From assembly GCA_964387845.1 (NCBI GenBank), contig CAYLXA010000001.1, forward strand, positions 256,001-320,000: a DNA stretch of 64,000 nt, given 5' to 3'. Below are positions 35,770-64,000 of the stretch, one piece after another. Each line of letters starts with the position of its first letter. Position 1 is the first letter of the stretch. The stretch comes from an uncultured bacterium (GTDB taxonomy: Bacteria; Omnitrophota; Omnitrophia; Omnitrophales; Abzuiibacteriaceae). A program made the position numbers and the translations under genes. The notes beneath the pieces are model-generated. The model worked only from the letters and a program-made list of their open reading frames with translations. It searched no databases and was not told the DNA's origin.

Positions 35770-35782
35770 TTTGTGGCCAACA

Positions 35783-47118: not shown

Positions 47119-47210
47119 TCCCTCTCCCTTTGGGAGAGGGCTAGGGTGAGGGATTTCTATAAATCCCACCACCCTCATCCTAACCTTCTCCCTCTAAAGA
47201 GGGAGAAGGG
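47119..47210. repeat. Copy 2 of the tripartite palindromic element (ccctctccctttgggagagggctagggtgaggga...caccctcatcctaaccttctccctctaaagagggagaaggg)
   Basis: About 85% identical to 27078..27168. Again the 3' hairpin encodes the last residues (SLEGEG) of the upstream ORF. Confidence 0.6.
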
Positions 47211-48007
47211 ATAAATCGTTTCATTAACCTGCTTGTTATAACGCCCGGAATTTCCGTGCCGATTTGACGGCCATCGAGCGACCGCACCGGCACGATGATA
47301 CCTGTTGAATTGGTTAAAAAGGCTTCATCCGCATTAAATACATCGTGACGCGTTAAGAAGGATTCTTCCGCCGAAATACCCAATTCGAGCGCATATTTTA
47401 ACACAAAACGGCGGACGACTCCATTCAGGATTCCGGCTGTGGGAGGCGTTTTCAACGCGCCTTCCTTCACCATGAAGAAGTTCCAGACTCCGGCCTCGCG
47501 TACATACCCGTCTGGCCCCAGATAAATCCGGTCAAACGAATCGGTACAATCTAAAAAAGCAAGCAGCCCATTGACCAGATCGCCTGATTTTGCTTCCGGC
47601 GGAACGCTGTTTGAGAGGTTGCGCCTCACAGCGGAAGTTTTAAGATCAACGCCTTCCCGATAAATCTTTTCGGGATAAGAGCGCACGGATACGATCGTGA
47701 AAATATTTTTCTCCGAAACAGCCAGACGAATTGAATGGTTTGGATTTTCTTTGGCGATTTCGGCAAGTTCTTTTTCAATCCGTTCACGTTCGGTGGGAAC
47801 TTCAATCCCTGAAGTTTTTGCGGATTCAAACAAACGGTCCAAATGTTCATTCAAATGCAGAATTTTACCGCTCCGGGATTGCATGGTTTCGAAAACGTTT
47901 AATCCAAGCTCCGCCGGCGATATTATAGGAAGCTCTGCCGGTTTTATCTGTTTTCCGTTGATAAAGAGAAGCATATCCGTAAGTGACATGGGAAAAGTAT
48001 AAAGCAA
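47180..48007 (-). CDS. Class-IV (fold-type IV) PLP aminotransferase: branched-chain aminotransferase or aminodeoxychorismate-lyase-like, 275 aa
   Basis: Fold-type-IV layout with EAFLTNSTGIIVPV and LNGVVRRFVL blocks. The neighbouring folC/purH genes favour, but do not prove, an ADC-lyase (PabC) role. Confidence 0.7.
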   Translation of the reverse strand: MLYTFPMSLTDMLLFINGKQIKPAELPIISPAELGLNVFETMQSRSGKILHLNEHLDRLFESAKTSGIEVPTERERIEKELAEIAKENPNHSIRLAVSEKNIFTIVSVRSYPEKIYREGVDLKTSAVRRNLSNSVPPEAKSGDLVNGLLAFLDCTDSFDRIYLGPDGYVREAGVWNFFMVKEGALKTPPTAGILNGVVRRFVLKYALELGISAEESFLTRHDVFNADEAFLTNSTGIIVPVRSLDGRQIGTEIPGVITSRLMKRFIPSPSLEGEG

Positions 48008-48030
48008 AAAAACAGGGCTGACTATTCGGA

Positions 48031-51000
48031 TTATGCGGAGTAGAAAACCTGCATTTGCGCGCGGAACTTGCCGACCAAATATGCCGCGGCTGATAATACA
48101 TGGTCCACAAACGCTTGGTTCCAGATTATGACCTTGTCTGCGATTTTTTCAAGAAATGGAACGGCAACCGCGTCATCTGAAACACCGATAATGGCCATGG
48201 AAAGACCGAGATTTCTAAGTTCGGCGCGCGCCTTGTGGTAATCCTCAACGGGAACAATCCTATTTTTTGGATTTGCAATGGTTGCATTAATCTCGTCGAT
48301 GACGCGAAGCTCTGCGCGGTTTGTCACGATCACCATGTAAGAACCGTAAACATCCGAAAGATTCCGGCCAACCACAGCCAGACTTCCCTTTTCGCCGAAG
48401 AAAGCGTTACGCGTAAACACTTTCCCTTCCCGCATCTCTGATCGATTTTGAAGTGCTGTAACAATCTGATTGTCAAAACTGCGAGCGTTTGACACAATCC
48501 GGCGCATTTCGCTTCTCGCTACCGGTGCAATCTCAGTTTGCAAATCTCGGAATAACGGATTTTCTTTGACTTCAACTCTTCCTTTAGCAATGGTTTTTTC
48601 AGTCTTTGCAATGACGCGGAAATTAAAAACTGTTTCACCCGAAACTTCGGACTGCACCTTGGCCATAATTAGCGGGAGCCCCAAAACTTCGCTTTGCACC
48701 TTGTCTCCGATTTCAGTATTATTGAAAGCATCTGCTTGATTTAGAATCGACTTTTCAATCGCGCTTTGAAAATCGATTGGTTTGATTTTTTGAAGGCTTT
48801 CCGGCAGCAATTCCTTGTTAATTTCGCCTTCCAAATGAATACTGACATCATAACGGCTTCCAATTGTCTTTTGAGCGATTGTAAAATTCCGGTGTTCGCT
48901 TGTTAGCGATTTGACGCCCGCCTGCTCATAAAATTGAGCATCAATAACGGGAACCTCGCGGTCTGCGATCTCTTCTAAAATCCGGACCGCGCGATGAATA
49001 TATTTAGCGTGCCGGAAACTTCTTCGCTCATTTTCGCTCAGAGTCAAACTCCTGTTTTTCATCTGCAATTCCGAATACCAGCGCCGGAATAACTTCATAA
49101 TTTGAATCAGCGAAAGCGGCTGGTTAGCGCCGAGCGGATTGGATGAATTTTGTTCGTAAATTCTATTAATATCTGTCTCGCTTTGAGCTGTCCAGCTTGA
49201 TTTTTCCTGATTTAAAACCGCTTTAAGTACCGGAATATAAAAACCTGTGTCACGCTCAATCCACCAATTAAGCACATAAAGAGCGGCGAAGCGCGCAGAT
49301 TGGCGCAGCATATCCGGATTAAAGTTTTTAGGCGCTACTTCAATGAGCGGTTTCCATTCATCAACCGGAATAACCGGTTCAGCTAAGTATTGAAGCAGTG
49401 TTTCGAGGCCAACCTCATTTCCTTTTCCAAGCTCATCGGCTCTTGTCTTCCGGATTGTAAAATTAGGATGCGACAAATTTCTAAGAAGTTTTTGCACCGA
49501 ACGCAGTTCTGATTTTTGGCTGCCGGCATCAGGCCCAGGCATCGGCTCTGTCAATTTTTGGAAACGTTCGGCCAATTCGGTTTCTGAGATTTTAAACATT
49601 TCGTCAACAAACGCTTCGGAACCGCCAAGCTCCCCTCCGTCTTCTCCGAATAAACGGACTTCGACTAACTCATGAAACGCAACGGCAAATCTTTCGGCCG
49701 ATATCCTTTCTTCATCCGTTTTGAATTCAAACTGAAAAGCGAGACGCGTATCCTTAACCGCTTCAAGCGTCATCAAGGCCATCGGATTATCCGCTTCGAT
49801 CCATTCAGCACTCCCTTTGTTCAGATTTTTGATCTTAACAGAAACATTTTTTGCTAGGGCGGCTTGCGCCATTTCGACAATGAACATCGCTGGACTCGCA
49901 TGGACACCTTGCCGGTTCTTGACCGTAACATTGATCTCAATGCTGTTACTTTCCCCTTCCCGCAATTCCGACATGTTTCTATCAGTCGGCGTTACGGACT
50001 TTTTATATTCATTAATCTGATGATCGAGAAAAGCTTCGTAACTATCAATGGCCTGGCTTGTTTGCGCCAACCACTCTTCTTCTTCTTTCAATAATAGGCC
50101 ATGTTCTTCTTTCATTCCCTTCAAAGCAGACTTTGCTTTTCGAAGCTCTGGTAATATTCTGAGATAATAATCGTTCGCTTCCGCGGCTAGAGAATTGCCT
50201 CGATCCGAAACTGACAAAATAAAGCTGCTGAAACGATTCAACAAAACTTCCGTGCGGCTCAATAAAATCTTAATTCTGAGCTGCTGTTCATCCAAAGCGA
50301 TTCGCCTCGGTTTGATAAGAGAATAATAAAGGAGCGCTCCGACTCCTATGCCTATCGCGCCCGCTGAAATACCGATAACGGTATAATTTCGTAATTCAGA
50401 ACGATGTTTAGGCGGACGGGGAAAACTTTGAAAAGGCCCCCTGCGCGCAGCGCGGACAGCCTGAATTCTCGCCGTCACTTCTTCAATAGTATCTAAGTCA
50501 CCGGCTAATTCTGCGTTATGAAGCTCGACTTCCAATCTTGCCAAATCCGTCGAGTGATGCGATTGGTCTACAGCAAACGGAAGCTCGATCGGCTCCTCAT
50601 TTTCCAAATCATTGCGCAGTTCCGAACGGACACCGGATTTTTCGCGAGGCGGCTGTTCAGATTTCGGCGGAACCGGGATCCATCCTTCCCACCGGCGGTA
50701 AACATGCGTAGGCCGCGTCCCTACTTCATTGGAAATATTTTTACCGCGCACGCCATGAACCTGATGGGCTTCATCACGCCGTAAAACTTCGGCTCTTTGT
50801 GCACGAAAATAATCATCCGTAAAATGAGTGATTTCGCCGGTTTTTAAGCCCGCGCGGCGCCAGTCAATGTGCCCTTCGGGATGAACAACACGCATATCTT
50901 TCTTCAGTACCTGCAAAGCTCCGGAAAATGCGGCGTGATTAAACAAAATAACTGTTTTCCCGCGATACTGCTCGTTCATGCGTTTCCAAAAAGCGGCGGC

Positions 51001-54000
51001 GCGGATGATTAAATGGGCAAAACTTTCGCCATGCTCAGGTTTCGCCAAAACACTCCACTTTTGATAACTTCGCGCGGCCTTGAATTGTTCCCGGCCAAAC
51101 TGCGCCTTAATTTGCTCATTGGTGAGCCCTTCCCATTCGCCTTGAAAAATTTCTTTTGTATCGGGATCAATCATCACTTTCAGTTCAATTCCTAATTTTT
51201 CACGTACCAACCGGATAAATGGTTCTGCCGTATCCCGCACACGCCCAAGCGGATTAATGATCACCACAAACTGATCCGGATTTGCTGTGATTTGGTCTTT
51301 AAACTTTTCAAATAATTTTTCAGCGTCAGCTTGCGCTTGCACGCGCCCTTTTGGCGTCAACTGCGCGCCTTCGTTATCCATACCGCTTCCCTGAAACCTC
51401 TTTCTCCCTGTTCTTAGCCCTTCCGCAATGATGTGAGTTTCTCCGTGGCGGATAACGTAAAGATCCAGATCAAGCGCCGGTGGGAAATAAGGCTCTTTAT
51501 AAAAAAGCTGCCCGGTCGATTGATTGACCCAAAAACCCATTTGTTGCAATGTTTCGGAAACATTTTTTCGCAATTCCACCCTCGCCTTCATTAATAAATC
51601 CGGCTGTATTGCACTGGTCGGAACCACAAGTTTGCCGTTTTCCCAATAGACCAGCGCACTCAAAAACTGGAACATGACCGGATCATGTTTTCTCACAAAA
51701 TCAGGGTCAAGCCAGTAAAGAGACTGGGCTTCAAAGAAAAACTCTCGCGCAGAAACAATGCTGTATCGGCTCAAAAACTGCGTTTCAATTTCTTCTTGAG
51801 AATAATCAAGCACCTGCTTCTTTTTCCCAAATTGCCTTTCAAGTGCCTGCAGCCTAGTCTCATAAATCCGTTTTGCAATCTGATAAACTGCTGTTTTATC
51901 GTGTGGAATGTTCACAATAGAGAGTGGTAAATTTTTATTCGCAAAATGCTCTAAGCGCTCAAAGTTAATCGGCAGCGCATACTGATTATGCTCAACGAGC
52001 GTTTCCGCAAGTTCGTGAGTCAGGAGCCGTTCTAAATAAGTAAAGTCCTTATCCCTCACCTTCAAAAATTCATCGCTCACTGGCCCGTCATAGGAGATCG
52101 GATGATCGCCCGCATAAAGTGAAAGAAAGATCGATTTAACATTGGACAGCACAGGATGAAGGGAGTGATAGGTAACGCCTCCCAAATGATCTCCGTTGCG
52201 TCTTACGATAGAACGCGCAATAAATACTTGGGCATTGAGCATTTTAAAAAGCGGTGCAATTGCAATGCCGGCCCTATGGCTTTCAAGGAAATGATTGAGC
52301 TGGCCATATAACTTACGCGCTAATCTCCAGTCGGTTTCACTGTTTAATCCATGCAATACATCAGTCCGAATATGTGCAGAAGAGCCTTGTAGATAACCCA
52401 AAACAATTTGACGCAATTCCGCCCTTGCCCCCTTTGAAGAAACATTTTCATGATCCGCTGGGGCCGAGGGGCTTTCTTGTAGTTCTTGCAAAATTAATAT
52501 CACTTCGTCCGGAAGTCCTAATGCGCTTAAAGCATCCTTGGCGCTTTCGAGCTGATGAAAACTGAAATGATCCGCAAATCTTTCTGCGCGAGACTTATTT
52601 CCCAGCAACCCTGTCAAAAATGGGATAGCCAACTCACGAAAATGAATGCACCATGGCTCCGCTTGAAGAATCCGGTTGGTCAGATAAAGCAGTTTTTTAA
52701 GCTGTTTAAACGATAAATCGCTATCTTGAAGCGCGGCACGGATTGCGTCATGGCCTGCATCCAACAACATAGTCTTAGGGGCAGCACTTTCCGCTTCGGA
52801 ATTCCTGAGCTCGGAACGTATGGCTCTAGATTTAATAGCAACGCTGCCGAGATACACATTGCCGCTCTGGTGATAAAGAAGCGGGTTTTCGTGGCCATCC
52901 ATGCTGATAACGTCTCCATCCGCGATATCACGGCCGGCGATGAGCCAAAGATGCTTTTCCGGCTGGAACACCATGTCCGGAACGCCATAAACGGCCGAAA
53001 TGCCTTCTTTCTGCGCCAGCGTTTCCGCATGCACTGAAATGGTCTTCGCTAAAATATGAACCCCTTTTGGAATCCGGTTAATCATTTCGGGATTCACTCT
53101 GTCCAAGATCAAAATAACGCCGTCAACATCCGCTCGGGGATGAGAAACAAGTTCGCCCAAAAGCTTTTCCGCTGCTTCTATCGAATTAGCCGCCAAACCG
53201 CGAATCGCACCGCCGCTCACGCCATGGCCGCGCGCAATCGGCTGATTGTCAGTCGAGTCGGCAAATTCCGGATATTGATCCGTCACAAAATCATCATTGC
53301 TTTGGACAATCCATATCTTTCCGCGCTCAATCGTGAATTCAAACTGCTGGTTGTAACGGAAAATGTTCTTGAGCTTACGCGCGTACTCGAACACTTGTGC
53401 GTAAAGCTCCGGCTGCAATGCTTCAAATGTTTGTTCATCCGGCCGGATTCGCTCACCATTTCCGATTAAAATGTAATTTTGGCCGGCACGGCTCATCAAT
53501 TGATCGCCGATCGAGTGAAACCGAAATTTACCTTGGAGCACGTCATGGCCGTCCGGAAGTGTTCTCAAAACTGCGTGCCCCGCGCCTGAAATTTTCCCGT
53601 CATCAGTCGGCTTTAAATTTCCGAAAACGCCTTTCTGCAGAATAACGACCGTTCCCCACTCTTGCGAAATCTGATGCCGTGTACGATACGCGCGTGCCTC
53701 TTCGGAGTCCCACGATGCATAAACCGCTTCGACTGCCATCATGACCTGATCCATCATGTCGTTTGGAATTATTTTGCCGTGCCGCGCCACGATTGCTTTG
53801 CACTGTTCCACCACTGCCTTCATGCCGTCTGCCGACAAATCTTCCTTTTCTTTAACATTCAAAACCTGCTCAAATTCCGCCTCAGGAATACCGAGCACAT
53901 TGATCGAAAATGACCGGATAAATTCCGCGTAGGTGTCATACGCAAACCACGCATCGCCGCTTTTTTGGGCAAGCGCTTCGGCTTCCGCGTCGTTCATGCC

Positions 54001-57000
54001 CACATTCGACACAGTAGCCAAAAGGCCGGGCAGCATGAAAGCAGAACCGCTTCGCGCGTACAAAATAAGCTTGAGGTCGGGATACTCGGAGTAGCGTTTG
54101 AGCCGTTCGATTTCGGCTGCGATTTTTTGACGGAATTCGTCCGACCTGAAAATGTCGGGTTTCGTCACTAACTTGGCGCTCAAGATGACACCCGGCGGTA
54201 CGGGAATCCTCTCGTGCGTCATGCGGATCAAGTTCAGGCCCTTTTTGCTCCAAAGCGAGAGAAGTTCCGGCCGTTCATCCGTTTCATTTTCGCCAAACCG
54301 GTACAAATGTTGCTCGAAATCATCCGGCCTTTCCGCGCCGGCATCCTCACGGATGGCTTCGTCCTGGCCTTGCGAAAGCGCAGAAGCGAGAACAGCATCA
54401 AATTTCATGAGCGCGCGGTCAAATGCCGTCGCGCCGGAATTCCGGATCAGCTCATCAATCACCGCGGCTTCAAGTCTCTCTTTTCCTTCAGGCGGAAAGT
54501 CATAAATTTGATAAGTCTGATCATCCTCTGTTTTGGTTTTGATTTTAAAGAGGCTGGTATGTTCGCGCCATAATTTTGCCAGATCGTGATAACCAACTTC
54601 ATCCAAGCTGTATTGCATGGCCGCGCGCATGGTGTTATTTAGTTGCCGGGTAATTTTGTGGACTTCGGCCTCAAGCGTGTGGACCAAATCGTAGAGCTGC
54701 GACGCCTTAATGCTGCCCGAATCAAGCTCAACCATCAATTGATCAAAATCGACACCACCCAGCCCTGAAGCCTGAATAAACCGGCCGAGCGCAATGAGAT
54801 TGGGCAATTCGCGCCGCAAATCGTCTACAGAATTTATTTTTTCAATCTTTTCCTGGACGTGAGCAATCTTTTCCGAAGCTAAAATCGATAATTTCTCGCT
54901 CATTTCAACCAACGTGCGTAAATCATATAGATAATCACCTTCTTCATGCATATCGTTCCACTCCTGGTCTATATCATCCGCATCCTCATCGGCCGAATCT
55001 TCGCCGTCCCGCCCAATGCTCTTCTCTGCCTGTCCCAATACTTTTTTCTGATTTTCCTCTCCGGAAAGCAAAAACTCTTTAAGATCATTTTGCACTTTCA
55101 CGATGGCGGAGAAAATGGCCGCATGATCATCAGAATCGATCAACATAAGCAGCCGATCGTAATCCTCCCGCATAAACCGGGTAATGGCCGTCATTTTCTT
55201 TTTCAAGTACCCACCGTCACGCAGATCTTCAGTTTCTCCTTTTAAGAAAGGAACGATCGTCGCGACGCGAGTTCCGAAATGATCCGCAAAAGCCAAATAA
55301 AGTTGAGTCATTAATTGAACGCGTTCATAGTCAATCTCGGACACATCTTCATCCCGGTTCGCTTCTTCATAAATCGCGACTACTTCACGCTCCGGAATGT
55401 CCAGGATTTCATCCAGAAAAGCCTCCGGATCGCTTTTGCTGATTTTCCCTTTGGCCGCAAGCGCTTTGACAAAACGGTTCAAGAGTTTTGAATAAGTTTG
55501 AAGAGTCGCTGGATTGAAATCTTTTGTCATATCATCCCGCAGCAGAGTCCAGTTGCTTTCCTTTAAAATAGACTCATCAAGCGTCAACCAATAAGCAAGA
55601 ACTCTTCTCGTATTCTCAAAGTCACTTCTATTCAAGTTTCGATGAATACCGTCTCTAAAATGGCTGAACCATCCGCGGCCAAACTCGCCGGGATAAGAGG
55701 CATTATTATCAAGCCGTCTTGAATAGCTGATAATACGGTCCTGCGAATTATCCGTAGAGACGCCGCCCTTGCGTTCGGCTTCGATGACTTTCATTAAATA
55801 AAAATAGGCCGCTCGGGCGTTTGGTTGATGGAGCAAATACAAGGACATCTGCGGATACTCTATGCGCTTTCTGCCTTCGCTTGGAATATCACGCACAAGG
55901 CCTTGGGCTGCCACAAAAGCAGCGGCAAGCGGATCCGCCGGTGAAACGCTCAGCAAGATAGAAATCAGTTCCCTGAAAAATTCGTGGCCTATGGTTCGGA
56001 GGTGCAGCAGAAGGTGAATCAGTTTACCCAAGTCGTCAGGACTTGCTTGGCGGAAAGTTGCTTCTAAATCATGGTGGATATCAGCTTTGATGTAATGCTC
56101 ATTAAAGTAAGCGGCTGCCAACTCAAGAAAAATCCGGTTCTCTTCCGGCGAATTTGTTTTAGAGAGGTAAATCGGAATCAAATGCTCTTTAAAGAAAGCA
56201 TCCGTCATTCTATAGCGGTCGGGCGACATCGCGCTCGACACGTACCACAAGTAGCTCTGTTTCTTATCCAGCGGTAAATCTGCTTTTAAAATAAACTCGC
56301 GAATCAAATTCTGCAGATGCTCTTTAGAATTTTTTTTAAGTAGGTCGATAATCGCCTCTTTCCTCGCCCCGACGGCTTGATTTTGCTCAAACGACAGGTG
56401 CTTGCCGCCTCTTCCAAAACTTAGTTTCATGAGTGTTTGGTAATCGCGCAGCGCTTTTTCGAATTCTTTATAAGACATTGGGTTTGTACGACCGTCCGAC
56501 CTGAGCTCGGAACGTTTTTGGGCAGTAAGTGTTTTTAAATTCGGAAAAAGTGTGCGGAACGGTTCGCCGAAAAAGAGGCGGCGTCGGACAGCCTCTTTGC
56601 GGCGATGAATAAATGCGGCTTGAGTCGGAAAAATAAGATGCCTCGGCAGAGGAGCGTATTTTAAATAAACAGGAGCTGATGTATTGATACCAACATTTAA
56701 TTCCGGGTCTTGCAAATTCGGCAGCGGAAGCGTGAGCACCGCATCCCGCAGAGGATTTTTACTGCGGTCACCGATTGTGCGAATCAGCATGCTGGCTTGA
56801 ACCTCGCTTACATCCCACGGTGAACGGAATCCCAGCCGAACCCAGTCAGATTCATTACGCGATAAAACTTCCGCGACCAGTTTTTCTATTTTTTCATTCG
56901 AAATTTTTCGGCCCGTTTCAACACCGTTCTGATCCAGTTCGGGAACATCGGTCAGCATCCGGCTTAGATATTCCGTCATGGATTGTTTTCCGGTGCGGCG

Positions 57001-60000
57001 TTTTGTATCGTCCGGCCAAAATCTGGCGCCATACTTCAGTGAGAATATTTTTACGCCCAGATCTGTGGATCTGTAACCAAACTTCCAATCATGAACGTCT
57101 TGATCCAGCATGACCGATAAGGCCCATAGCATCAAATTTCGATACGTGAAACCCGGATAAGACTGCGAGAATTTTCGTGTAGACGGCGGTATATCGGCCA
57201 AACGTTCTTCGGGCCATGCCGATACAACACTAATGAACCGCTTGACATAATCGGCCAGCAGCTCGTTGTCCGAGGGTTTCTTGATTTCTTTCCCGTCAAA
57301 TTCCTCAATATGAAGACCGGTCGGACGCAGATGTATGACTTGCGTCAAGCCCAATGTCCAGTAAGCGTAAAATAAATCCTCTAAACCACCCGCAAGCAGA
57401 TGATCCAGACGGCCTGCAAATTTTTCAAATTCGTCCAGGTCTTTGAAATAGGGATCGATTAACGTTGCCAAAAATTGGTTGAGGTTGCCGAATTTCTTGT
57501 CAAGGCCCCGGTTTTCCCATTCCCGGCGCAATTCGACGCCGAGCTCGCGTAATTCCCTATTCGAAAATCCTTCGGGCAATACCTTGCTCCAATAAATGCG
57601 CCTGTCCTCTGAGCCGCTTCTGGGCCAAAACCGATTGGAGTCGTGCGGGCTCAATAGAAACGTCAGAGCTTCAAGGATATCGCCTTCCGTCAGACTGTCA
57701 TAAATCTTATTCGGAGAGCCCGCTTGATCCATCAAATCGCGAATCACATCCATAACTTGATCGACTTTTGAACGTTGGGTGACCGCGGCAGTTTGCCTAA
57801 GTTCCGAACGGTTTTTCAGAATTTGCCGCCGTTCTTCGAGCGTAAAAAATTGTTTTTCGTAAGCTCTTTTTGCGGCTTCCCGGATTTTTCTATTAAACCG
57901 GTCTAAATCAGTTATTTCCTTCTTTAAAAAATCAAGCCACTGTTTTGGTTCAATGGTCATTTCCCCGAAAAATTCGTCGCTCAAAAGCATCAACAGCTGC
58001 ACAAATGCGACTTTGTACAAAGGATCTTCCTGATCCAAGGCAGCCCGCATCGCATCTGATACCGGAAGTACCGGATTCAGATAAGGGAACAGGATTTGAG
58101 CCGGATAGGACGACCGGATTAATTCATTCAATTTAGCTTCTACTTCAAAGTAAGCATGGGCCAACAACCCCTGCTGATCGCCTTCATACCCGCCCAGCGC
58201 ATGAGCCAGCAAACTTCCGGGACGCAGGATAGCTTTCATCACATTAATCCAATAGAGCGATGTTGAGTAATCGTTTTCTCCCTTATAAAATTCGTTTGCA
58301 AACACATAGGCATCGGAATGGCTAAGTTCCTCCTCTAAAACTCCGCTCCGGTATAATTGTGCGACATACCCATAATCGCCCAAACTATAAAAATGCATTT
58401 GAATCCAATCTCGTAAGTAAGCGACGGGTGATTGATCAAAATTGGGAAATTGATACTGGCCCGTTTCATATAACTTTTTCAAATTTTGGTAATAATCAAA
58501 ATTTTCTATCGAAGGAACGTCGGTGCCTTCAATAATGACAATATGCCTGTCTTTCGCAAATGCACTTAGGTAACTGTCGCTCTTTCCGTCTCTCGATTTG
58601 AGGCGAACGGTGTAAACCGGAACAAACCGGCCTGCCGCAGAGCGCTGAGATTCCCTTTTGATAATTTTACCGACCAAGAGTCCGCTGCCGTTCACTATGT
58701 CCACGATCAGGCCACGTGGAATTAAAATATCGTCCGCGATTTTTGTTCCTATTTTTCCGATATCATAAATAGAAATCAAATCTTTGTGGCCAAATGAAAA
58801 AGCGGCATCAAAATCCGGTGAAAGAGGCCTGAGAACCTGGTTGAATGTTTCAACGGCCTCAAGACGGTTTAAGTCATTTAGACTGGCTTTTTCGACTAGG
58901 TACTTTAGCTTCGGCCAATAGCTCACCCAAAACCATTCCACAACATCAAAGCTGGGGCTATCCGGATTTAGGAGCCTAAACTCTCTGATTAAGTTGAGAA
59001 TTTGATTCGCCTGGCTGGTGTTGAGCGTGATCTTTCCGCGCAAAGCTTTGATAATGCCTTGCGCATTTAAATTTTGAGTTTCCAAAAATTCTTTCAGAAC
59101 ATCTACGGTAAAAAAGCGTTTAATATTTTTTACGCTTAATTTCGAAATGATGAGAGCATGCAGCGTTTGAACCGGATCCGTATTTACTGCTTGTGCCGTC
59201 TGATTGCGCAATTCAGAGCGGAGTAGCTCAGACTGCGGGGCAGCGGTTTGACCTTGCAACGGGATTTCCCAGAAATTGCGGGCGTTGCGGGCAGAATCGA
59301 AGAATGCTCTGGCTTTCGCACGGTTGCCTTTGGTTAACTCGAATAATCCAAAAATAATTGCGTAAGCTCTTTCCGTAAAGCTACGCGACTTTTTTAGCAC
59401 AAAGTCACGGGCCAGCCACCGGTAACGGAATGCGTCAAAATGATACTGAAAACCGGCTTCCGGATCGTGAATCTTTTTAATTGTATTGCGCGAGGCTCCC
59501 TGAGAGTAGTGCTGATCTAAATAATCGCGGCCGTAGTTGGTAATCCCTGCATAGATCTTCTTAAAGCCCGAACGCCGCGCGACATCTTGAAGAATCTGAA
59601 TCGCTTCCGGCATCAGTTCATCGAAATATTTTGCACCGTCATTGTTAAACTCGAAACTGTTGACCGTTAGTACCGGATCTCCATTGTCTTCCGATGCAAT
59701 CATCCACATCTGTGCCCGATGCTGATAGGCATCGCCTGAACCCTTGTGATCGATGTCCGCCAGGATAATTCCGTCGTCACTCAGGAGAGAGGGCAAAATC
59801 CAGGAGACAAAATGCTGCAGAGAAATACAATTTCCGATGGCTTCACTTGAAGTGAGAAAATCTATCGCGCCTTTCAGGGTCTTTTTGTCGTGAATTCTTA
59901 TTCGAATTCCCTTTTCTTTATTTTCGTAAACCCTGCCCTTCTCAAATTCAGAAACATTGATGCCGATTGCCTGCATTTTTTTCTCAATGGCTGAAACATG

Positions 60001-63000
60001 GCCTGTTTTGCGAAGTCTTTCTGACAAATAATCACGCAATCTTTTGTAATACAAAATTCCGGGCGCAATATTGAGCCGCGTGCTGATCAAAAAAGTTCCT
60101 GGCGCGATAATTCCCATCAAAATAAAAAACAAGGCAGCATTTGAAATGAGAGGATAAATGGTAAAAACGCCGAACCCGACCAGAAACGCGAAAGCGGTCG
60201 GCGCCACCCAAGCATAAATGGGCCTTGGCGGCTTTCTAAGGCCTTTCAAAATGCGTGGATTCATCGTGACAATGTCGAGAGCATCTGCAATGCTGATCCC
60301 GAGTGCGCGCCGCACTTTGGCAATTTCGGAAATTTTCATGCGGCTCAGGCGCGTGGCTTTCATAAATTTCTGAACCGCCATGAGTTTGTCAAAAGCGTCT
60401 TTTTTAAGACTGTCCCGCACCGCTTTGTCTTCGGAAAGCCTGCGCATAGCTTCTTGATTTGAGGCTGACCAGACTACGGCAATAACTTCTTCCGTTTTTT
60501 TCCGCTGGTCAGGCGAAAGTTTATCCAAAAACTTAAGCACATTGACGAGATCGCCGTCTTTAACGGACACGTTGTACAGAATTTCTTCAAAAAAGTACCG
60601 CAAATTCCGGTTTGGACTTGGAAAATATTCGAGCAACTTTTCAAGTTTCGCGATTGCGCGCGGAGGATAGCTCATTTTCTGCGCAACGGGATTTTCATTA
60701 ATTTCAGCGAGAATGGTTTCGATAAATTTTGGATATGCGCGGAGCTCGGATCGCTGCTCATCGGTTTTTTTTGCGATTGCCCTCCTTTCAGACTTATGCT
60801 GAAACCACCACATTCCTCCAAAAAGAAGCAGAAGCGGCGGGATCAAGGAAGCATTGTCCGTAAGCCAGGCAACGGGCCCGGTCACAACAAGAACAAGCGA
60901 GGCTGTAATTGCCTTAAGAAAATATTGTTTCCGGAACTTAAACCACCACGTTTTATACTGAGTCGGAAAAATCTTAACGCGGTTCGATGGTTGAATTAAA
61001 TCCGTTACATAACCAATCACTTCACCTTTTGGGAAAGCATACTCCAAAGGCTCGACCGGATACCCATAAACGTCTAAATATTGTTTTTGGGAAGGATCGG
61101 CATATTCGATCGATACAAGCTCGGGCTGTTTGCCGGATTTCTTAACATAATCGACAAGCCTCTTAGGCCCTTGATTGAGCGGATAAGCAAAATAAAGAAC
61201 TGATTTAAATCCGCATGCCCGGGCATAGTTCTCGATGATTTTTTGAATTCCCTTCGCCTTTGCATCAAAAATTCGCCCCTCCACACCGTCCACAAATAAA
61301 ATCGGCTGTTCTTTTCCGTCTTGATCCTTATAAATCGCGGCGGCGATTCTGGCCCGTACCCGGCGGCCTTCGCGCGTACGGAAATCAATCGCTGAAATAC
61401 TTTTGTTGTGCAAATAATTAAACGGGCCCAGCGCACCTTTTGTTCTCCGGTTTAATTTGTCAAGCCACGTGTTGCCGCGAAGCGACGCCGAAGAAAAGAA
61501 ATCCTTTTGATTGGTTAAATCAAACCACGGATCGCGCCGCCAAATCCGGGCTTCTACAATTGAGTCCGGTAAATTTCCCCAATCGTCAATCTTGGAGATA
61601 CTTTTCTGAAGGTATTGATTGGCCTTCGCGGCATTGGGGTTTACATATTGGCCCAGCTCTTGCAGCAACTTTTTTCCTTCCTCGACAGGCAATTCACCTC
61701 TTTTATTCCTGGCCAATTCTTCTTTGTGCGCATTGAAAAATTGAGTGACCGACTTCTTACCCTCCTTTAAATTGGGCGTGTACTGTCCGGGCTTAAACTG
61801 GCGGTCTTCGGTTGAACCCAAAAAATCCCTGAGTATTTTCTGGATAAACTCGGGGATGGTTTGATTTTCCGCGTCTTCGAATTCCCCTGCCGGTACTTTT
61901 TCAATATTATCCCCGCGAATTTGATAATAGACTTTGTAATCCGGATTATCCCAATTTTCGTTGATGCCGACCGATTTGAGACGCTCCATGGTTTGAATCG
62001 CTGCCTCGGTCTGGTCAAACCATTGCCGGTAACTTCGCCGCTTAAGCATGGAGGCCAGATCCAACGCGGAAATTGTTTTCCACGAAAAAATGAACATTCG
62101 TTTCGCAAATACCGCCAAAATGTAAACCAAGGCTGTGAAACCTGACGCCACAAACAAGCTTTCAATCCATCCTGCGGGATCAGAATTGTTGATCATTTCC
62201 CTAATATTTAAGCTTGCTAAATTTCCATCCATCCAAAAAGAAATAGCGGAATAGAAAATTGTGAGCGCTGCGCGTTGAACCGAAGCATAGAAATATCCAA
62301 TAACGCCAGTGAAGGAAACCGCGAGAAGATGCAGCCACGGGTTCTGAATGAGCGCCGTACGGGCGTGCGCAATCCGTGCGCGTTCTAATTTTTCTTCGTT
62401 AATTTTGTTCAAGTCAATCTTTAAACTTTTAAACTTTTTCCACAAAAATTTCAGCTCCGGGAAACCGTCTTTCTCCATCCGCTCGTCGATTTCGGCAATG
62501 GTGAGATCTGAATTCTCACGCAGTTCACTGGCTGCCTTTGGATTTTTGCTTTTTCCGTTTCCGGAAAAAGCGTTGCGCGTCAGAACACCGATCGTTTTAA
62601 ACACCAGCGCGGTGTTATAAAGTGCCGACCGGTCCCGGATATCGTTTAACTCCAGCTCTATGTCATGCGTGTCCATGCCAAACTTTCCGGTTCCGATACC
62701 CCGCTTTAGAGCGCTTGAGCTGAGAAAACCCGGCTTGGTGTGATGTAAAACACTTTCGATATAATTTTGATCAACTTCCAAAGGTAAGCGCGGCCTTGGC
62801 CCAAACCATTGCATGTCACCGCGGACAATCGACAAGAGCTGCGGAAGCTCATCAAGCCCCGTTCTGCGCAAAAACCATTCGTAAGGCGTAATGCTTTCAT
62901 CTGAAATGTTGAAATCAAGTTTCATGGTTTTAATTTTTCGTATCACAATCGTCTTGCCCTGAAAACCGATTCGCTCTTGAATAAAAAACATGGGGCCGCT

Positions 63001-63996
63001 TGTGATAATTTTCCGGATAAAGGCAAGCAAATAAACCAGCGGAAGAGTTAAAACCCACAAAACGAGCGCTGTGATTCTCCCTGCCGCCTCGGACAGATCA
63101 GGTTTCTTTGCCGCGGGAAGCGATAAAGCATTGGTTTCCTTCAAGCGCAATTCCGAGCGCGCTTTATCGATGTCGTTCGATTGAGAAGCCGAAGTCGGTA
63201 TTTCTCCGGTTGGGTGATTGCTGCTTACCGCATTTGCTTTTCCTTTTGAATGCAAATAAAAGGTGCCGACGGCGGATGTTAAATGTCCCAATCCGGCCAG
63301 AAGCACAACCTCGTTTGAATCTTTTCTGGATCCAAGATACGCGGTTTCTGCCATAAAAGATCCTCTGTCTTTTGCTTTGTCGTTGGGATGTGTCAAATAA
63401 TCAGGGGCGAATAACTGGTGCGACTCGATAGATTTCAACCATTTGGTAAAAAGCAGAATGAGAGAAACCACAAGAAACCACGGTGCAAAAAATGCAGCTA
63501 TTAAACTATCCCGAAGCGAATCCCCATGATCAAATATTTCACTGCCAACCTGCAATTTGTAAAGCAGGCGAAAATTTCGCTCGTGAAAAAATGGGATGCC
63601 TTCTCTCGCTAAGAAATAAGATAACTCCCGTACTTTTTTCTTGTTTAGCAGCATAAATTCAGAACCATGCACAATGCCAATCACATGAAAAGTACGCCCG
63701 CCGATTTTGACCATCTTACCGGAAAAACCAAAGCGTTCCGCAATCGGCGAATCTTGAAATTGCGCCATGGTTTCAGAAGCCGCCTTTCGCCAAATTGGAG
63801 TAGCGAAGTCTGAAAATACTCGGCGGTGATAACCGATATTTTTGCCTAAAAGACCGGCTTTTTTAAATTTCTGAAACAATTCGATGGGTTTTGATGATTC
63901 AATCATCCAAGTTCCGATAGTCCTTTCTGAAATTTTTAATTCACCCGCTCGATCCCAAAATTGTTTCTCAGACGGGTAACGTAAAACATTGATCAA
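48031..63996 (-). CDS. Giant polytopic membrane multidomain protein, at least 5,321 aa (15,966-nt uninterrupted frame). Domains identified from N- to C-terminus: possible TraB-like region, PGT (polyprenyl-phosphate hexose-1-phosphate transferase) domain, several TM clusters, PPDK/PEP-synthase-like ATP-grasp plus PEP-utilizer phospho-His domain, histidine phosphatase (PGAM-like), HPr-like domain, and an unassigned C-terminal ~540 aa
   Basis: Single ORF ending at a stop at 48031. The frame is still open at 63997..64000 (the track start at 63996 is a TTG), so the true 5' end may lie beyond the window. PGT domain: FIQERIGFQGK...TGLDELPQLLSIVRGDMQWFGPRP. PPDK_N region: GLNLIRMTHERIPVPPGV, ARSGSAFMLPGLLATVSNVG, RAYRTRHQISQEWGTVVILQKGVFGN...SGAGHAVLRTLPDGHDVLQGKF. 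Phospho-His domain: AKTISVHAETLAQKEGISAVYG. PGAM-like: LYVIRHGETH. HPr-like: KNRQGVHASPAMF. Confidence 0.85.
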   Translation of the reverse strand: MINVLRYPSEKQFWDRAGELKISERTIGTWMIESSKPIELFQKFKKAGLLGKNIGYHRRVFSDFATPIWRKAASETMAQFQDSPIAERFGFSGKMVKIGGRTFHVIGIVHGSEFMLLNKKKVRELSYFLAREGIPFFHERNFRLLYKLQVGSEIFDHGDSLRDSLIAAFFAPWFLVVSLILLFTKWLKSIESHQLFAPDYLTHPNDKAKDRGSFMAETAYLGSRKDSNEVVLLAGLGHLTSAVGTFYLHSKGKANAVSSNHPTGEIPTSASQSNDIDKARSELRLKETNALSLPAAKKPDLSEAAGRITALVLWVLTLPLVYLLAFIRKIITSGPMFFIQERIGFQGKTIVIRKIKTMKLDFNISDESITPYEWFLRRTGLDELPQLLSIVRGDMQWFGPRPRLPLEVDQNYIESVLHHTKPGFLSSSALKRGIGTGKFGMDTHDIELELNDIRDRSALYNTALVFKTIGVLTRNAFSGNGKSKNPKAASELRENSDLTIAEIDERMEKDGFPELKFLWKKFKSLKIDLNKINEEKLERARIAHARTALIQNPWLHLLAVSFTGVIGYFYASVQRAALTIFYSAISFWMDGNLASLNIREMINNSDPAGWIESLFVASGFTALVYILAVFAKRMFIFSWKTISALDLASMLKRRSYRQWFDQTEAAIQTMERLKSVGINENWDNPDYKVYYQIRGDNIEKVPAGEFEDAENQTIPEFIQKILRDFLGSTEDRQFKPGQYTPNLKEGKKSVTQFFNAHKEELARNKRGELPVEEGKKLLQELGQYVNPNAAKANQYLQKSISKIDDWGNLPDSIVEARIWRRDPWFDLTNQKDFFSSASLRGNTWLDKLNRRTKGALGPFNYLHNKSISAIDFRTREGRRVRARIAAAIYKDQDGKEQPILFVDGVEGRIFDAKAKGIQKIIENYARACGFKSVLYFAYPLNQGPKRLVDYVKKSGKQPELVSIEYADPSQKQYLDVYGYPVEPLEYAFPKGEVIGYVTDLIQPSNRVKIFPTQYKTWWFKFRKQYFLKAITASLVLVVTGPVAWLTDNASLIPPLLLLFGGMWWFQHKSERRAIAKKTDEQRSELRAYPKFIETILAEINENPVAQKMSYPPRAIAKLEKLLEYFPSPNRNLRYFFEEILYNVSVKDGDLVNVLKFLDKLSPDQRKKTEEVIAVVWSASNQEAMRRLSEDKAVRDSLKKDAFDKLMAVQKFMKATRLSRMKISEIAKVRRALGISIADALDIVTMNPRILKGLRKPPRPIYAWVAPTAFAFLVGFGVFTIYPLISNAALFFILMGIIAPGTFLISTRLNIAPGILYYKRLRDYLSERLRKTGHVSAIEKKMQAIGINVSEFEKGRVYENKEKGIRIRIHDKKTLKGAIDFLTSSEAIGNCISLQHFVSWILPSLLSDDGIILADIDHKGSGDAYQHRAQMWMIASEDNGDPVLTVNSFEFNNDGAKYFDELMPEAIQILQDVARRSGFKKIYAGITNYGRDYLDQHYSQGASRNTIKKIHDPEAGFQYHFDAFRYRWLARDFVLKKSRSFTERAYAIIFGLFELTKGNRAKARAFFDSARNARNFWEIPLQGQTAAPQSELLRSELRNQTAQAVNTDPVQTLHALIISKLSVKNIKRFFTVDVLKEFLETQNLNAQGIIKALRGKITLNTSQANQILNLIREFRLLNPDSPSFDVVEWFWVSYWPKLKYLVEKASLNDLNRLEAVETFNQVLRPLSPDFDAAFSFGHKDLISIYDIGKIGTKIADDILIPRGLIVDIVNGSGLLVGKIIKRESQRSAAGRFVPVYTVRLKSRDGKSDSYLSAFAKDRHIVIIEGTDVPSIENFDYYQNLKKLYETGQYQFPNFDQSPVAYLRDWIQMHFYSLGDYGYVAQLYRSGVLEEELSHSDAYVFANEFYKGENDYSTSLYWINVMKAILRPGSLLAHALGGYEGDQQGLLAHAYFEVEAKLNELIRSSYPAQILFPYLNPVLPVSDAMRAALDQEDPLYKVAFVQLLMLLSDEFFGEMTIEPKQWLDFLKKEITDLDRFNRKIREAAKRAYEKQFFTLEERRQILKNRSELRQTAAVTQRSKVDQVMDVIRDLMDQAGSPNKIYDSLTEGDILEALTFLLSPHDSNRFWPRSGSEDRRIYWSKVLPEGFSNRELRELGVELRREWENRGLDKKFGNLNQFLATLIDPYFKDLDEFEKFAGRLDHLLAGGLEDLFYAYWTLGLTQVIHLRPTGLHIEEFDGKEIKKPSDNELLADYVKRFISVVSAWPEERLADIPPSTRKFSQSYPGFTYRNLMLWALSVMLDQDVHDWKFGYRSTDLGVKIFSLKYGARFWPDDTKRRTGKQSMTEYLSRMLTDVPELDQNGVETGRKISNEKIEKLVAEVLSRNESDWVRLGFRSPWDVSEVQASMLIRTIGDRSKNPLRDAVLTLPLPNLQDPELNVGINTSAPVYLKYAPLPRHLIFPTQAAFIHRRKEAVRRRLFFGEPFRTLFPNLKTLTAQKRSELRSDGRTNPMSYKEFEKALRDYQTLMKLSFGRGGKHLSFEQNQAVGARKEAIIDLLKKNSKEHLQNLIREFILKADLPLDKKQSYLWYVSSAMSPDRYRMTDAFFKEHLIPIYLSKTNSPEENRIFLELAAAYFNEHYIKADIHHDLEATFRQASPDDLGKLIHLLLHLRTIGHEFFRELISILLSVSPADPLAAAFVAAQGLVRDIPSEGRKRIEYPQMSLYLLHQPNARAAYFYLMKVIEAERKGGVSTDNSQDRIISYSRRLDNNASYPGEFGRGWFSHFRDGIHRNLNRSDFENTRRVLAYWLTLDESILKESNWTLLRDDMTKDFNPATLQTYSKLLNRFVKALAAKGKISKSDPEAFLDEILDIPEREVVAIYEEANRDEDVSEIDYERVQLMTQLYLAFADHFGTRVATIVPFLKGETEDLRDGGYLKKKMTAITRFMREDYDRLLMLIDSDDHAAIFSAIVKVQNDLKEFLLSGEENQKKVLGQAEKSIGRDGEDSADEDADDIDQEWNDMHEEGDYLYDLRTLVEMSEKLSILASEKIAHVQEKIEKINSVDDLRRELPNLIALGRFIQASGLGGVDFDQLMVELDSGSIKASQLYDLVHTLEAEVHKITRQLNNTMRAAMQYSLDEVGYHDLAKLWREHTSLFKIKTKTEDDQTYQIYDFPPEGKERLEAAVIDELIRNSGATAFDRALMKFDAVLASALSQGQDEAIREDAGAERPDDFEQHLYRFGENETDERPELLSLWSKKGLNLIRMTHERIPVPPGVILSAKLVTKPDIFRSDEFRQKIAAEIERLKRYSEYPDLKLILYARSGSAFMLPGLLATVSNVGMNDAEAEALAQKSGDAWFAYDTYAEFIRSFSINVLGIPEAEFEQVLNVKEKEDLSADGMKAVVEQCKAIVARHGKIIPNDMMDQVMMAVEAVYASWDSEEARAYRTRHQISQEWGTVVILQKGVFGNLKPTDDGKISGAGHAVLRTLPDGHDVLQGKFRFHSIGDQLMSRAGQNYILIGNGERIRPDEQTFEALQPELYAQVFEYARKLKNIFRYNQQFEFTIERGKIWIVQSNDDFVTDQYPEFADSTDNQPIARGHGVSGGAIRGLAANSIEAAEKLLGELVSHPRADVDGVILILDRVNPEMINRIPKGVHILAKTISVHAETLAQKEGISAVYGVPDMVFQPEKHLWLIAGRDIADGDVISMDGHENPLLYHQSGNVYLGSVAIKSRAIRSELRNSEAESAAPKTMLLDAGHDAIRAALQDSDLSFKQLKKLLYLTNRILQAEPWCIHFRELAIPFLTGLLGNKSRAERFADHFSFHQLESAKDALSALGLPDEVILILQELQESPSAPADHENVSSKGARAELRQIVLGYLQGSSAHIRTDVLHGLNSETDWRLARKLYGQLNHFLESHRAGIAIAPLFKMLNAQVFIARSIVRRNGDHLGGVTYHSLHPVLSNVKSIFLSLYAGDHPISYDGPVSDEFLKVRDKDFTYLERLLTHELAETLVEHNQYALPINFERLEHFANKNLPLSIVNIPHDKTAVYQIAKRIYETRLQALERQFGKKKQVLDYSQEEIETQFLSRYSIVSAREFFFEAQSLYWLDPDFVRKHDPVMFQFLSALVYWENGKLVVPTSAIQPDLLMKARVELRKNVSETLQQMGFWVNQSTGQLFYKEPYFPPALDLDLYVIRHGETHIIAEGLRTGRKRFQGSGMDNEGAQLTPKGRVQAQADAEKLFEKFKDQITANPDQFVVIINPLGRVRDTAEPFIRLVREKLGIELKVMIDPDTKEIFQGEWEGLTNEQIKAQFGREQFKAARSYQKWSVLAKPEHGESFAHLIIRAAAFWKRMNEQYRGKTVILFNHAAFSGALQVLKKDMRVVHPEGHIDWRRAGLKTGEITHFTDDYFRAQRAEVLRRDEAHQVHGVRGKNISNEVGTRPTHVYRRWEGWIPVPPKSEQPPREKSGVRSELRNDLENEEPIELPFAVDQSHHSTDLARLEVELHNAELAGDLDTIEEVTARIQAVRAARRGPFQSFPRPPKHRSELRNYTVIGISAGAIGIGVGALLYYSLIKPRRIALDEQQLRIKILLSRTEVLLNRFSSFILSVSDRGNSLAAEANDYYLRILPELRKAKSALKGMKEEHGLLLKEEEEWLAQTSQAIDSYEAFLDHQINEYKKSVTPTDRNMSELREGESNSIEINVTVKNRQGVHASPAMFIVEMAQAALAKNVSVKIKNLNKGSAEWIEADNPMALMTLEAVKDTRLAFQFEFKTDEERISAERFAVAFHELVEVRLFGEDGGELGGSEAFVDEMFKISETELAERFQKLTEPMPGPDAGSQKSELRSVQKLLRNLSHPNFTIRKTRADELGKGNEVGLETLLQYLAEPVIPVDEWKPLIEVAPKNFNPDMLRQSARFAALYVLNWWIERDTGFYIPVLKAVLNQEKSSWTAQSETDINRIYEQNSSNPLGANQPLSLIQIMKLFRRWYSELQMKNRSLTLSENERRSFRHAKYIHRAVRILEEIADREVPVIDAQFYEQAGVKSLTSEHRNFTIAQKTIGSRYDVSIHLEGEINKELLPESLQKIKPIDFQSAIEKSILNQADAFNNTEIGDKVQSEVLGLPLIMAKVQSEVSGETVFNFRVIAKTEKTIAKGRVEVKENPLFRDLQTEIAPVARSEMRRIVSNARSFDNQIVTALQNRSEMREGKVFTRNAFFGEKGSLAVVGRNLSDVYGSYMVIVTNRAELRVIDEINATIANPKNRIVPVEDYHKARAELRNLGLSMAIIGVSDDAVAVPFLEKIADKVIIWNQAFVDHVLSAAAYLVGKFRAQMQVFYSA

Positions 63997-64000
63997 TAGC

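Follow-up and report, generated by a model that had tools for sequence, protein, structure and literature searches.

A short R-[SA]-E-[LM]-R peptide as a candidate junction code in giant mosaic proteins of a probable Omnitrophota lineage

A five-residue peptide, usually R-S-E-L-R, recurs along a giant protein encoded in a 64,000-nucleotide stretch of DNA from an uncultured bacterium (hereafter the window), and marks where modules adjoin in the leader-bearing, mosaic, multi-enzyme giant membrane proteins of one lineage. This lineage is most likely Omnitrophota. The nearest named homolog of the neighbouring PurH (61% identity) is from Candidatus Abzuiibacterium, phylum Omnitrophota, and one giant protein bearing a phosphoglycosyl transferase (PGT) module is annotated as Candidatus Omnitrophica bacterium.

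The open reading frame (ORF) lies on the minus strand and runs from 48031 to beyond 64000, with no stop codon up to the window end; a TTG 'start' at 63996 is an artefact, the ORF continuing past the window end. The complete product, identified by database search on a 409-kb NCBI contig, is P0001 (5,975 aa). The window encodes the C-terminal 5,322 aa, and the N-terminal 653 aa beyond the window end comprise a leader, a methyltransferase, a lipoprotein-like module, the start of a transmembrane (TM) module and five further motif copies. P0001, the product of one very long ORF, strings together many distinct enzyme families of which none dominates by copy number (Methyltransf_25, Bac_transf, PPDK_N with PEP-utilizers, His_Phos_1 and PTS-HPr), and the remainder has no family match. 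Topology was judged by inspection and a Kyte-Doolittle scan: inspection indicated an N-terminal Sec-type signal peptide and the scan about ten hydrophobic segments.

Recurrence and specificity of the motif

Within the 5,322 window residues, SELR occurs 11 times and RSELR eight times, where the protein's own composition predicts 0.19 and 0.013 occurrences, respectively. Full-length P0001 carries 14 copies of SELR (0.21 expected), and 21 matches once S/A/P, L/M and R/H variants are counted. Poisson probabilities are ~4e-21 for full P0001 and 2e-16 for the window part, and among 500 shuffles of full-length P0001 no 4-mer exceeded five copies, compared with the 14 observed for SELR. Near-copies in the window are RSEMR (twice) and RAELR (three times). 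Across 34 copies from two proteins, Glu is invariant (34/34), with R at 26/34, S at 27/34, L at 32/34 and the final R at 33/34; only these five positions are informative. The residue at position +1 after the motif is merely small or polar, with Asn in 7/34 copies. A loose match, LPELRK at P0001 aa 5270, falls in a helix predicted with confidence and probably arose by chance.

The initial annotation had reported that SELR recurs at least 11 times, beyond chance; 11 is the exact count in the window part. Its eleven positions and five near-copies are right to within two residues, and its DNA strings and coordinates are correct as reverse complements. It had written the motif as R-S-E-L-R-N and placed it at 50386..59220. 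The RSELR core stands, but not the final N, as the hexamer RSELRN occurs only four times; the range does hold real copies, but only part of a set that spans 48214..63159 in the window, with five more upstream of the window end. The copies in the window are as follows, L097 and L100 being loci of relatives described below.

63145..63159, minus strand: RSELR (window aa 281-285, P0001 934-938), N-terminal boundary of the PGT module
62518..62532, minus strand: A-SELR (window aa 490-494), C-terminal boundary of the PGT module
60739..60753, minus strand: RSELR (window aa 1083-1087)
59206..59220, minus strand: RSELR (window aa 1594-1598)
57796..57810, minus strand: RSELR (window aa 2064-2068)
56500..56514, minus strand: RSELR (window aa 2496-2500, P0001 3149-3153); the L097 homology block (58% identity) stops at its last Arg
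52804..52818, minus strand: RSELR (window aa 3728-3732)
52411..52425, minus strand: RAELR variant (window aa 3859-3863)
50614..50628, minus strand: RSELR (window aa 4458-4462)
50389..50403, minus strand: RSELR (window aa 4533-4537, P0001 5186-5190); L100 homology starts at its first Arg, with a TM helix directly after
49960..49974, minus strand: M-SELR (window aa 4676-4680), 7 aa before the HPr domain; the HPr module extends to 49516
49501..49515, minus strand: K-SELR (window aa 4829-4833, P0001 5482-5486), invariant in three orthologs; L097 and L100 homology resumes here
48514..49500, minus strand: module conserved in P0001, L100 (50% identity) and L097 (39% identity); an internal RSELR of L100 and L097 is degenerate in P0001 (SRYDVS)
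48502..48516, minus strand: RSEMR near-copy of uncertain status (window aa 5162-5166), with no counterpart in L100 or L097
48430..48444, minus strand: RSEMR near-copy (window aa 5186-5190), RSELR in the L100 ortholog
48304..48318, minus strand: RAELR near-copy (window aa 5228-5232), RSELR in the L100 ortholog
48214..48228, minus strand: RAELR near-copy (window aa 5258-5262), also RAELR in the L100 ortholog

[SA]E[LM]R is absent from the real frame of the other long ORFs (≥250 aa) of the window, which include purH, folC, mnmE, a class II ribonucleotide reductase, enolase and a 2,070-aa Rhs/Tc-like protein, and the other long ORFs of this length in loci L001, L097, L100 and L103 hold zero copies. 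In a control of 96 unrelated loci, whose long ORFs total 263,000 aa, at least two copies were found only in the gene for P0002, a second giant protein introduced below. The compositional artefact against which the initial annotation had cautioned is not seen in these ORFs. An origin of the recurrence in composition or chance has only the short length of the motif in its favour; probabilities of ~1e-16 to 1e-21, the shuffles, the other long ORFs and the 96-locus control are all contrary, and the counts refute it, leaving it a vanishingly small likelihood.

Constraint at the peptide level

Codon usage was analyzed over 47-58 copies pooled from six genes. Ser, Leu and Arg are encoded by codons of every family, the information at third codon positions is 0.03-0.3 bit (0.9 bit for Glu, whose codons end in A or G only), and the 24 nt on either side of the motif carry zero information. 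The copies are not alike at the nucleotide level, as those of a tandem or dispersed DNA repeat would be. Synonymous positions are essentially random, which argues that the constraint acts on the peptide, and R-[SA]-E-[LM]-R is a short linear peptide under purifying selection. The uninformative third positions and flanks, together with the full range of codon families, uphold the earlier proposal that conservation is at the peptide level and not that of a DNA repeat.

A mild codon bias was observed (Ser TCN in 29/30, first Arg CGY in 72%, and Glu GAG in 53% versus 25% background), which fits interconversion of S, A and P via NCN codons together with common descent of junctions, and not a nucleotide signal. 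The bias at these first three codons, and the exact breaks in ortholog homology at the motif described below, would also be expected if the 15-nt motif DNA were a microhomology or recombination site for cassette exchange, with the peptide as a by-product. However, third positions that are nearly free of information, unconserved flanks and the occurrence of every codon family are difficult to reconcile with selection on DNA; the tolerated variants are conservative at the amino acid level (S/A, L/M/F/I), and single-mutation interconversion of S, A and P explains the TCN/GCN/CCN pattern. We consider action at the DNA level highly improbable.

Modules bounded by motif copies

No motif copy falls inside a Pfam domain, either in P0001 or in any relative examined, and the modules between copies match whole stand-alone proteins or complete domains in size and extent. 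The 209-aa PGT unit, aligned with complete stand-alone PGTs (189-206 aa), covers their entire length. Likewise, the HPr domain starts 7 aa past M-SELR, position 1 of the asparaginase profile lies 2-3 aa past RAELR in L104, and DUF218 sits between two motif copies in L100. Upstream of the window, SSELR is followed directly by AFKILKLIQLFSLIGLASVG-C (P0001 aa 287-311), an internal lipoprotein signal peptide with a basic n-region, a hydrophobic core and a PROSITE-type lipobox, whose Cys is one of only five in 5,975 aa. The S-adenosylmethionine (SAM)-methyltransferase module of P0001 lies between the N-terminal Sec-type signal peptide and this internal lipoprotein signal. Recognizable features of the giant ORF within the window are listed here, PPDK denoting pyruvate phosphate dikinase.

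48031..64000, minus strand: giant mosaic ORF, C-terminal part of P0001
62581..63075, minus strand: Bac_transf (PGT) module, a motif-to-motif unit equal to a whole small stand-alone PGT
52888..54312, minus strand: PPDK-like ATP-grasp and PEP-utilizer swivel domain, ending ~24 aa before the next RSELR
50914..51462, minus strand: His_Phos_1 domain (domain match), within a motif-bounded module
50329..50385, minus strand: hydrophobic TM or signal-anchor segment (hydrophobicity scan), 5 aa after RSELR and followed by KPRR
49714..49938, minus strand: PTS-HPr domain (domain match)

The initial annotation had placed most copies between domains or just before TM helices. The first of these positions holds, whereas only a minority of copies precede TM helices. 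Its suggestion of a domain-boundary signal is now strongly supported by the correspondence of modules to whole proteins or domains, by homologs that keep the motif and by ortholog homology that breaks there.

Further carriers of the motif

Relatives were found via PurH homologs, and the gene order giant gene - pabC - purH - folC - mnmE - ribonucleotide reductase is kept. As the homolog comparison proposed with the initial annotation required, the giant genes of the following relatives keep the same or a drifted motif.

L100 (PurH 89% identical): fragment of 1,284 aa with 7 copies, 0.07 expected
L097 (PurH 85% identical): fragment of 3,062 aa with 7 copies, 0.15 expected
L103 (PurH 74% identical): fragment of 2,464 aa with 9 copies as R[SA]E[LMFI]R, 0.13 expected
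L104 (PurH 65% identical): fragment of 2,544 aa with 8 RAELR and 2 RSELR, 0.008 expected for RAELR

Loci L105 and L106 (63% PurH identity) have no giant gene at the purH locus.

A second giant, P0002 (5,133 aa), is encoded at L001:10001-25402 in JGI metagenome 3300028648 and carries 10 copies of SELR (0.20 expected) plus three variants. By BLAST and phmmer, P0001 and P0002 overlap only in a 76-78-aa N-terminal leader (E=4e-9), the PGT module (52% identity) and the motif, the first copy of which lies at the end of the leader (aa 77 and 79 in the pair). A further protein, of 2,492 aa and encoded in L097, combines this leader with KSELR at aa 82 and two additional copies, and so the motif is a property of the lineage's mosaic proteins and not of one gene. 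L097 and P0002 come from the same sample and match in tetranucleotide signature (r=0.98). When the PGT module was searched exhaustively with HMMER against 1.84 billion representatives, no closer relative emerged, and scans of genome and metagenome contigs with the PGT alignment gave generic sugar transferases and the P0002 contig only. A homolog search with an alignment of the conserved C-terminal module returned no matches, the query protein itself also going unmatched.

The leader is common to these three long mosaic proteins (P0001 aa 1-81; L001:10001-10243; L097:18574-18830). It is 76-82 aa long and consists of a signal peptide ending in ..[ST][IV]AY[GSA]D, ~50 variable residues and the first junction motif at its end. 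A short C-terminal ending, ..[IF]YSA or ..AA, is shared by the three leader proteins and many of these giants.

Homology breakpoints in orthologous giant genes

Alignment of P0001 with its L097 and L100 orthologs showed gain, loss and replacement of modules exactly at the motif. P0001 aa 2802-3153 is 58% identical to L097, and the alignment stops on the last Arg of RSELR (aa 3149-3153), past which the following 2.2-2.3 kaa of the two proteins are unrelated. Similarity restarts 4 aa before KSELR (aa 5482-5486) and stops 3 aa before RSEMR (aa 5815). With L100, similarity has two starting points, the first Arg of RSELR (aa 5186) and then KSELR (aa 5482); P0001 has the HPr module with its M-SELR and L100 does not, a single motif-to-motif indel. 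Overall, 5/6 internal BLAST block ends lie 0-4 residues from a motif copy, although only 4.5% of the protein is that close to one (P ~1e-6).

In the three-way alignment of P0001, L100 and L097, KSELR is invariant and the 12 residues before it have nothing in common. Orthologous copies swap S/A and L/M, such that RSEMR and RAELR in P0001 correspond to RSELR in L100, and one copy present in L100 and L097 has decayed to SRYDVS in P0001.

Two further observations concern these loci. In the L104 giant gene, the same peptide, RAELRNLKVGSSSLSS, follows the junctions at both aa 831 and aa 1580, and the junction DNA is identical, which indicates a recent internal duplication of a cassette start. Separately, pabB (Chorismate_bind) lies directly upstream of pabC-purH in L104 (7666-9952), L105 (7711-10025) and L106 (7655-10011). 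It is missing in the window, L097, L100 and L103, and the giant gene abuts pabC (window 47180-48031).

Junction peptides of other mosaic proteins

More distant mosaic proteins that share this PGT module are enriched in other peptides, which occupy the same flanks, 210-226 aa apart.

P0009 (also P0007): SSSP[VA], 13 observed versus 0.13 expected
P0024: N[AS][AS]VL, 6 observed versus 0.015 expected
P0011 and P0004: KP[EQ]xPDM, 5 and 3 observed versus 0.001 expected
P0013: R[SAP]EMR, 3 observed versus 0.004 expected

P0009 also contains a Peptidase_S8 module bounded by its own junction peptide. As a separate observation, P0003 and P0004 have modules in common in shuffled order.

This turnover bears on a translational role for the motif, in which the nascent chain would act within the ribosome tunnel to cause 2A-like peptide-bond skipping or programmed pausing. 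Such a role, too, would predict conservation of the peptide at module ends. However, the ribosome tunnel is highly conserved, yet the junction peptide is wholly different between related lineages, and the informative part of the motif is just five residues. To our knowledge, no skipping or pausing mechanism of this kind exists in bacteria, and the chance that one operates here seems to us remote.

Proposed function of the junction peptide

Generic linkers do not keep a pentapeptide while flanks and synonymous sites randomize, and we therefore infer that a specific macromolecular reader of the motif exists. Because the junction peptide changes between lineages (RSELR, R[SA]EΦR and RAELR; SSSPV, NAAVL and KPEAPDM), the reader would be lineage-specific. 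The same observations bear on a motif without a dedicated reader that serves primarily as structure in the linker, for instance as a hinge or helix N-cap, and at which breakpoints would accumulate since recombinants survive only in linkers. Copies at P0001 aa 5111 and 5186 do lie at N-terminal helix ends after low-confidence coil, albeit in a low-confidence model, and breakpoints in linkers are expected for any modular protein. A generic linker would nonetheless not hold Glu, Arg and Leu nearly invariant (34/34, 33/34 and 32/34) amid randomized flanks and synonymous sites, and would not be replaced at the same place in other lineages by chemically unrelated peptides. We regard a purely structural role as improbable.

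Our preferred reading is that a trans-encoded, site-specific endopeptidase cuts a polyprotein at or next to the motif, a proposal that we judge to be evenly balanced between true and false. The giant ORF would be translated as one chain, as the equivalent of an operon, and the endopeptidase would recognize the motif and cut on the C-terminal side of either the invariant Glu or an Arg. The products would be separate enzymes and membrane proteins together with at least one prolipoprotein, and the motif would be the cleavage code of a bacterial polyprotein. Cleavage is favored because the units between copies correspond to whole proteins, and because targeting signals of the N-terminal type directly follow motif copies. 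It is also favored because a single chain would put the SAM-methyltransferase in the periplasm, whereas the separated pieces would each be sensibly located. We extend this proposal only tentatively, with somewhat more doubt than belief, to Omnitrophota giant ORFs as true bacterial polyproteins, with a junction code for each lineage, a co-evolving endopeptidase and cassettes shuffled between genes and genomes.

Several observations weigh against cleavage. No peptidase family was detected by Pfam and NCBIfam in P0001, P0002, the ortholog fragments or the flanking genes, within the ~170 kb of lineage DNA covered, and P0001 and P0002 share no module that could serve as a protease in cis. Were the chain inserted intact, copies would probably lie on both sides of the membrane. 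In the conserved C-terminal region, 3-4 copies are spaced 24-42 aa apart, such that cuts would give tiny peptides, and the L104 giant ends in ..YRAELRLAEAA, with the motif 5 aa before the stop codon. Moreover, some fusion boundaries lack a motif, such as the start of the PPDK-like part. The structure models are also of low confidence, their mean predicted local distance difference test scores being 35 (C-terminal 220 aa) and 57 (P0001 aa 5100-5500); these single-sequence predictions carry little weight. In the latter model, low-confidence linkers that separate better-predicted elements contain or adjoin the copies at aa 5186 and 5329.

The main rival to cleavage is a motif that is recognized and left uncut, either as a docking site for a scaffold, chaperone, or insertion or secretion factor, or as a modification site within one working chain. 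An island of conservation within variable linkers and lineage-specific variation of the motif fit this explanation equally well, and it accounts for the failure to find a protease and for copies where cutting seems pointless, namely in the C-terminal region and immediately before the L104 stop codon. It leaves unexplained the exact match of inter-motif units to whole proteins, the presence of a lipoprotein signal peptide or signal anchor right after motif copies, and the free swapping of modules at the motif. Furthermore, P0001 and P0002 have no common candidate binding domain apart from the leader and the PGT module. An uncut recognition site is in our estimation unlikely, though deserving of serious consideration alongside cleavage.

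Relation to known systems

Multi-enzyme giant proteins of Omnitrophota are a known protein class (West-Roberts et al., 10.1101/2023.11.21.568195; class 1 of Nielsen & Lui, 10.64898/2026.06.07.730766). Like these, P0001 is a long single ORF of unrelated enzyme domains (methyltransferase, sugar transferase, kinase-like and phosphatase), with a signal peptide, TM helices and poor conservation between genomes, although at 5,975 aa it falls below the 10-kaa cut-off of the Nielsen & Lui 2026 catalogue (10.64898/2026.06.07.730766). Proteolysis of the class was suspected by West-Roberts et al. (10.1101/2023.11.21.568195), for whom a lack of cleavage points blocked further analysis. Term searches of the text of 10.1101/2023.11.21.568195 and 10.64898/2026.06.07.730766 found no report of a junction motif, and literature searches on RSELR, or on polyprotein together with Omnitrophota, returned nothing relevant. 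The protein class itself is known, and neither the junction code nor the cassette exchange at the motif was found described in the two preprints.

RSELR would provide the first concrete candidate processing sites for Omnitrophota giant proteins, and these sites are exact and testable, bearing on the question of whether such proteins act as a single chain or as pieces. The junction peptide also offers a rule for splitting giant ORFs into modules for structure prediction and annotation, and a handle on the reader enzyme through correlation of motif type with protease families across genomes. In evolutionary terms, the giant genes evolve by whole-cassette exchange at the motif.

Viral polyproteins, such as those processed by picornavirus 3C and potyvirus NIa, carry protease-specific cleavage motifs. 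The RSELR giants resemble them in having one ORF that encodes several whole proteins, a short peptide at each junction and a motif that drifts with lineage. They differ in residing in a cellular genome and in having some membrane or exported modules with their own targeting signals, and no cognate protease was found for them in the lineage DNA covered. MARTX (multifunctional autoprocessing repeats-in-toxin) proteins combine RTX repeats with an internal cysteine protease domain (CPD), and their effectors are released by linker cleavage at a loose X-Leu site. The RSELR giants are likewise giant bacterial mosaics with modules shuffled between genomes, but they have no RTX repeats and no CPD (Peptidase_C80) in Pfam or NCBIfam, are composed of housekeeping-type enzymes and use a five-residue motif. 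With the same two libraries, no sorting-signal or RTX family was found in the giant protein.

Polymorphic toxins bear demarcation motifs (VENN in CdiA and PxxxxDPxGL in Rhs) at a single C-terminal junction, beyond which lie a toxin cassette and an adjacent immunity gene. As in CdiA and Rhs, homology between RSELR giant alleles stops at a short conserved peptide with a replaceable cassette beyond. Unlike them, the giants have ~20 internal junctions, enzyme cassettes and no immunity gene, the downstream genes being a pabC-like aminotransferase and purH. Finally, precursors of multi-core RiPPs (ribosomally synthesized and post-translationally modified peptides), such as the cyanobactin precursor PatE, consist of a leader and cassettes flanked by protease recognition sequences, with cores of less than ~20 aa and PatA/PatG-type proteases. 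The RSELR giants also have an N-terminal leader followed by cassettes flanked by the same short sequence; in contrast to PatE, these cassettes are proteins of 60-1,400 aa, and no PatA/PatG-type protease was found.

Additional features of the giant protein and the window

Cysteine is strongly depleted in the giants, with 5 residues in P0001 (5,975 aa) and 2 in P0002 (5,133 aa), versus 0.75% in 33 other window ORFs. The giant protein combines a PPDK N-terminal ATP-grasp and swivel (without the phosphoenolpyruvate/pyruvate-binding barrel), a histidine phosphatase and HPr at window 49714-54312 (minus strand), and the three domains could form a phosphotransfer set. A guess made by eye that P0001 aa 740-934 is a TraB/PrgY/TIKI-like protease was not supported, as the segment matches no Pfam family even at E<=10.

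Elsewhere in the window, the 2,070-aa protein at 1980-8192 (minus strand) contains SpvB, TcdB_toxin_midN, FG-GAP and RHS-repeat domains (Tc-toxin BC/Rhs-like) and no RSELR. It is preceded by a Glucodextran_B/Big-domain protein at 8194-9705 (minus strand). The GC content is 0.36-0.42 over the first 18 kb (1-18 kb), which includes the Rhs/Tc-like gene, versus 0.45-0.50 elsewhere, and this low-GC region may be an acquired island. The listed ORFs at 34093-35901 and 35783-37270 (minus strand) overlap by 119 nt, and the upstream GVG/ATG start choice probably makes one of the pair too long.

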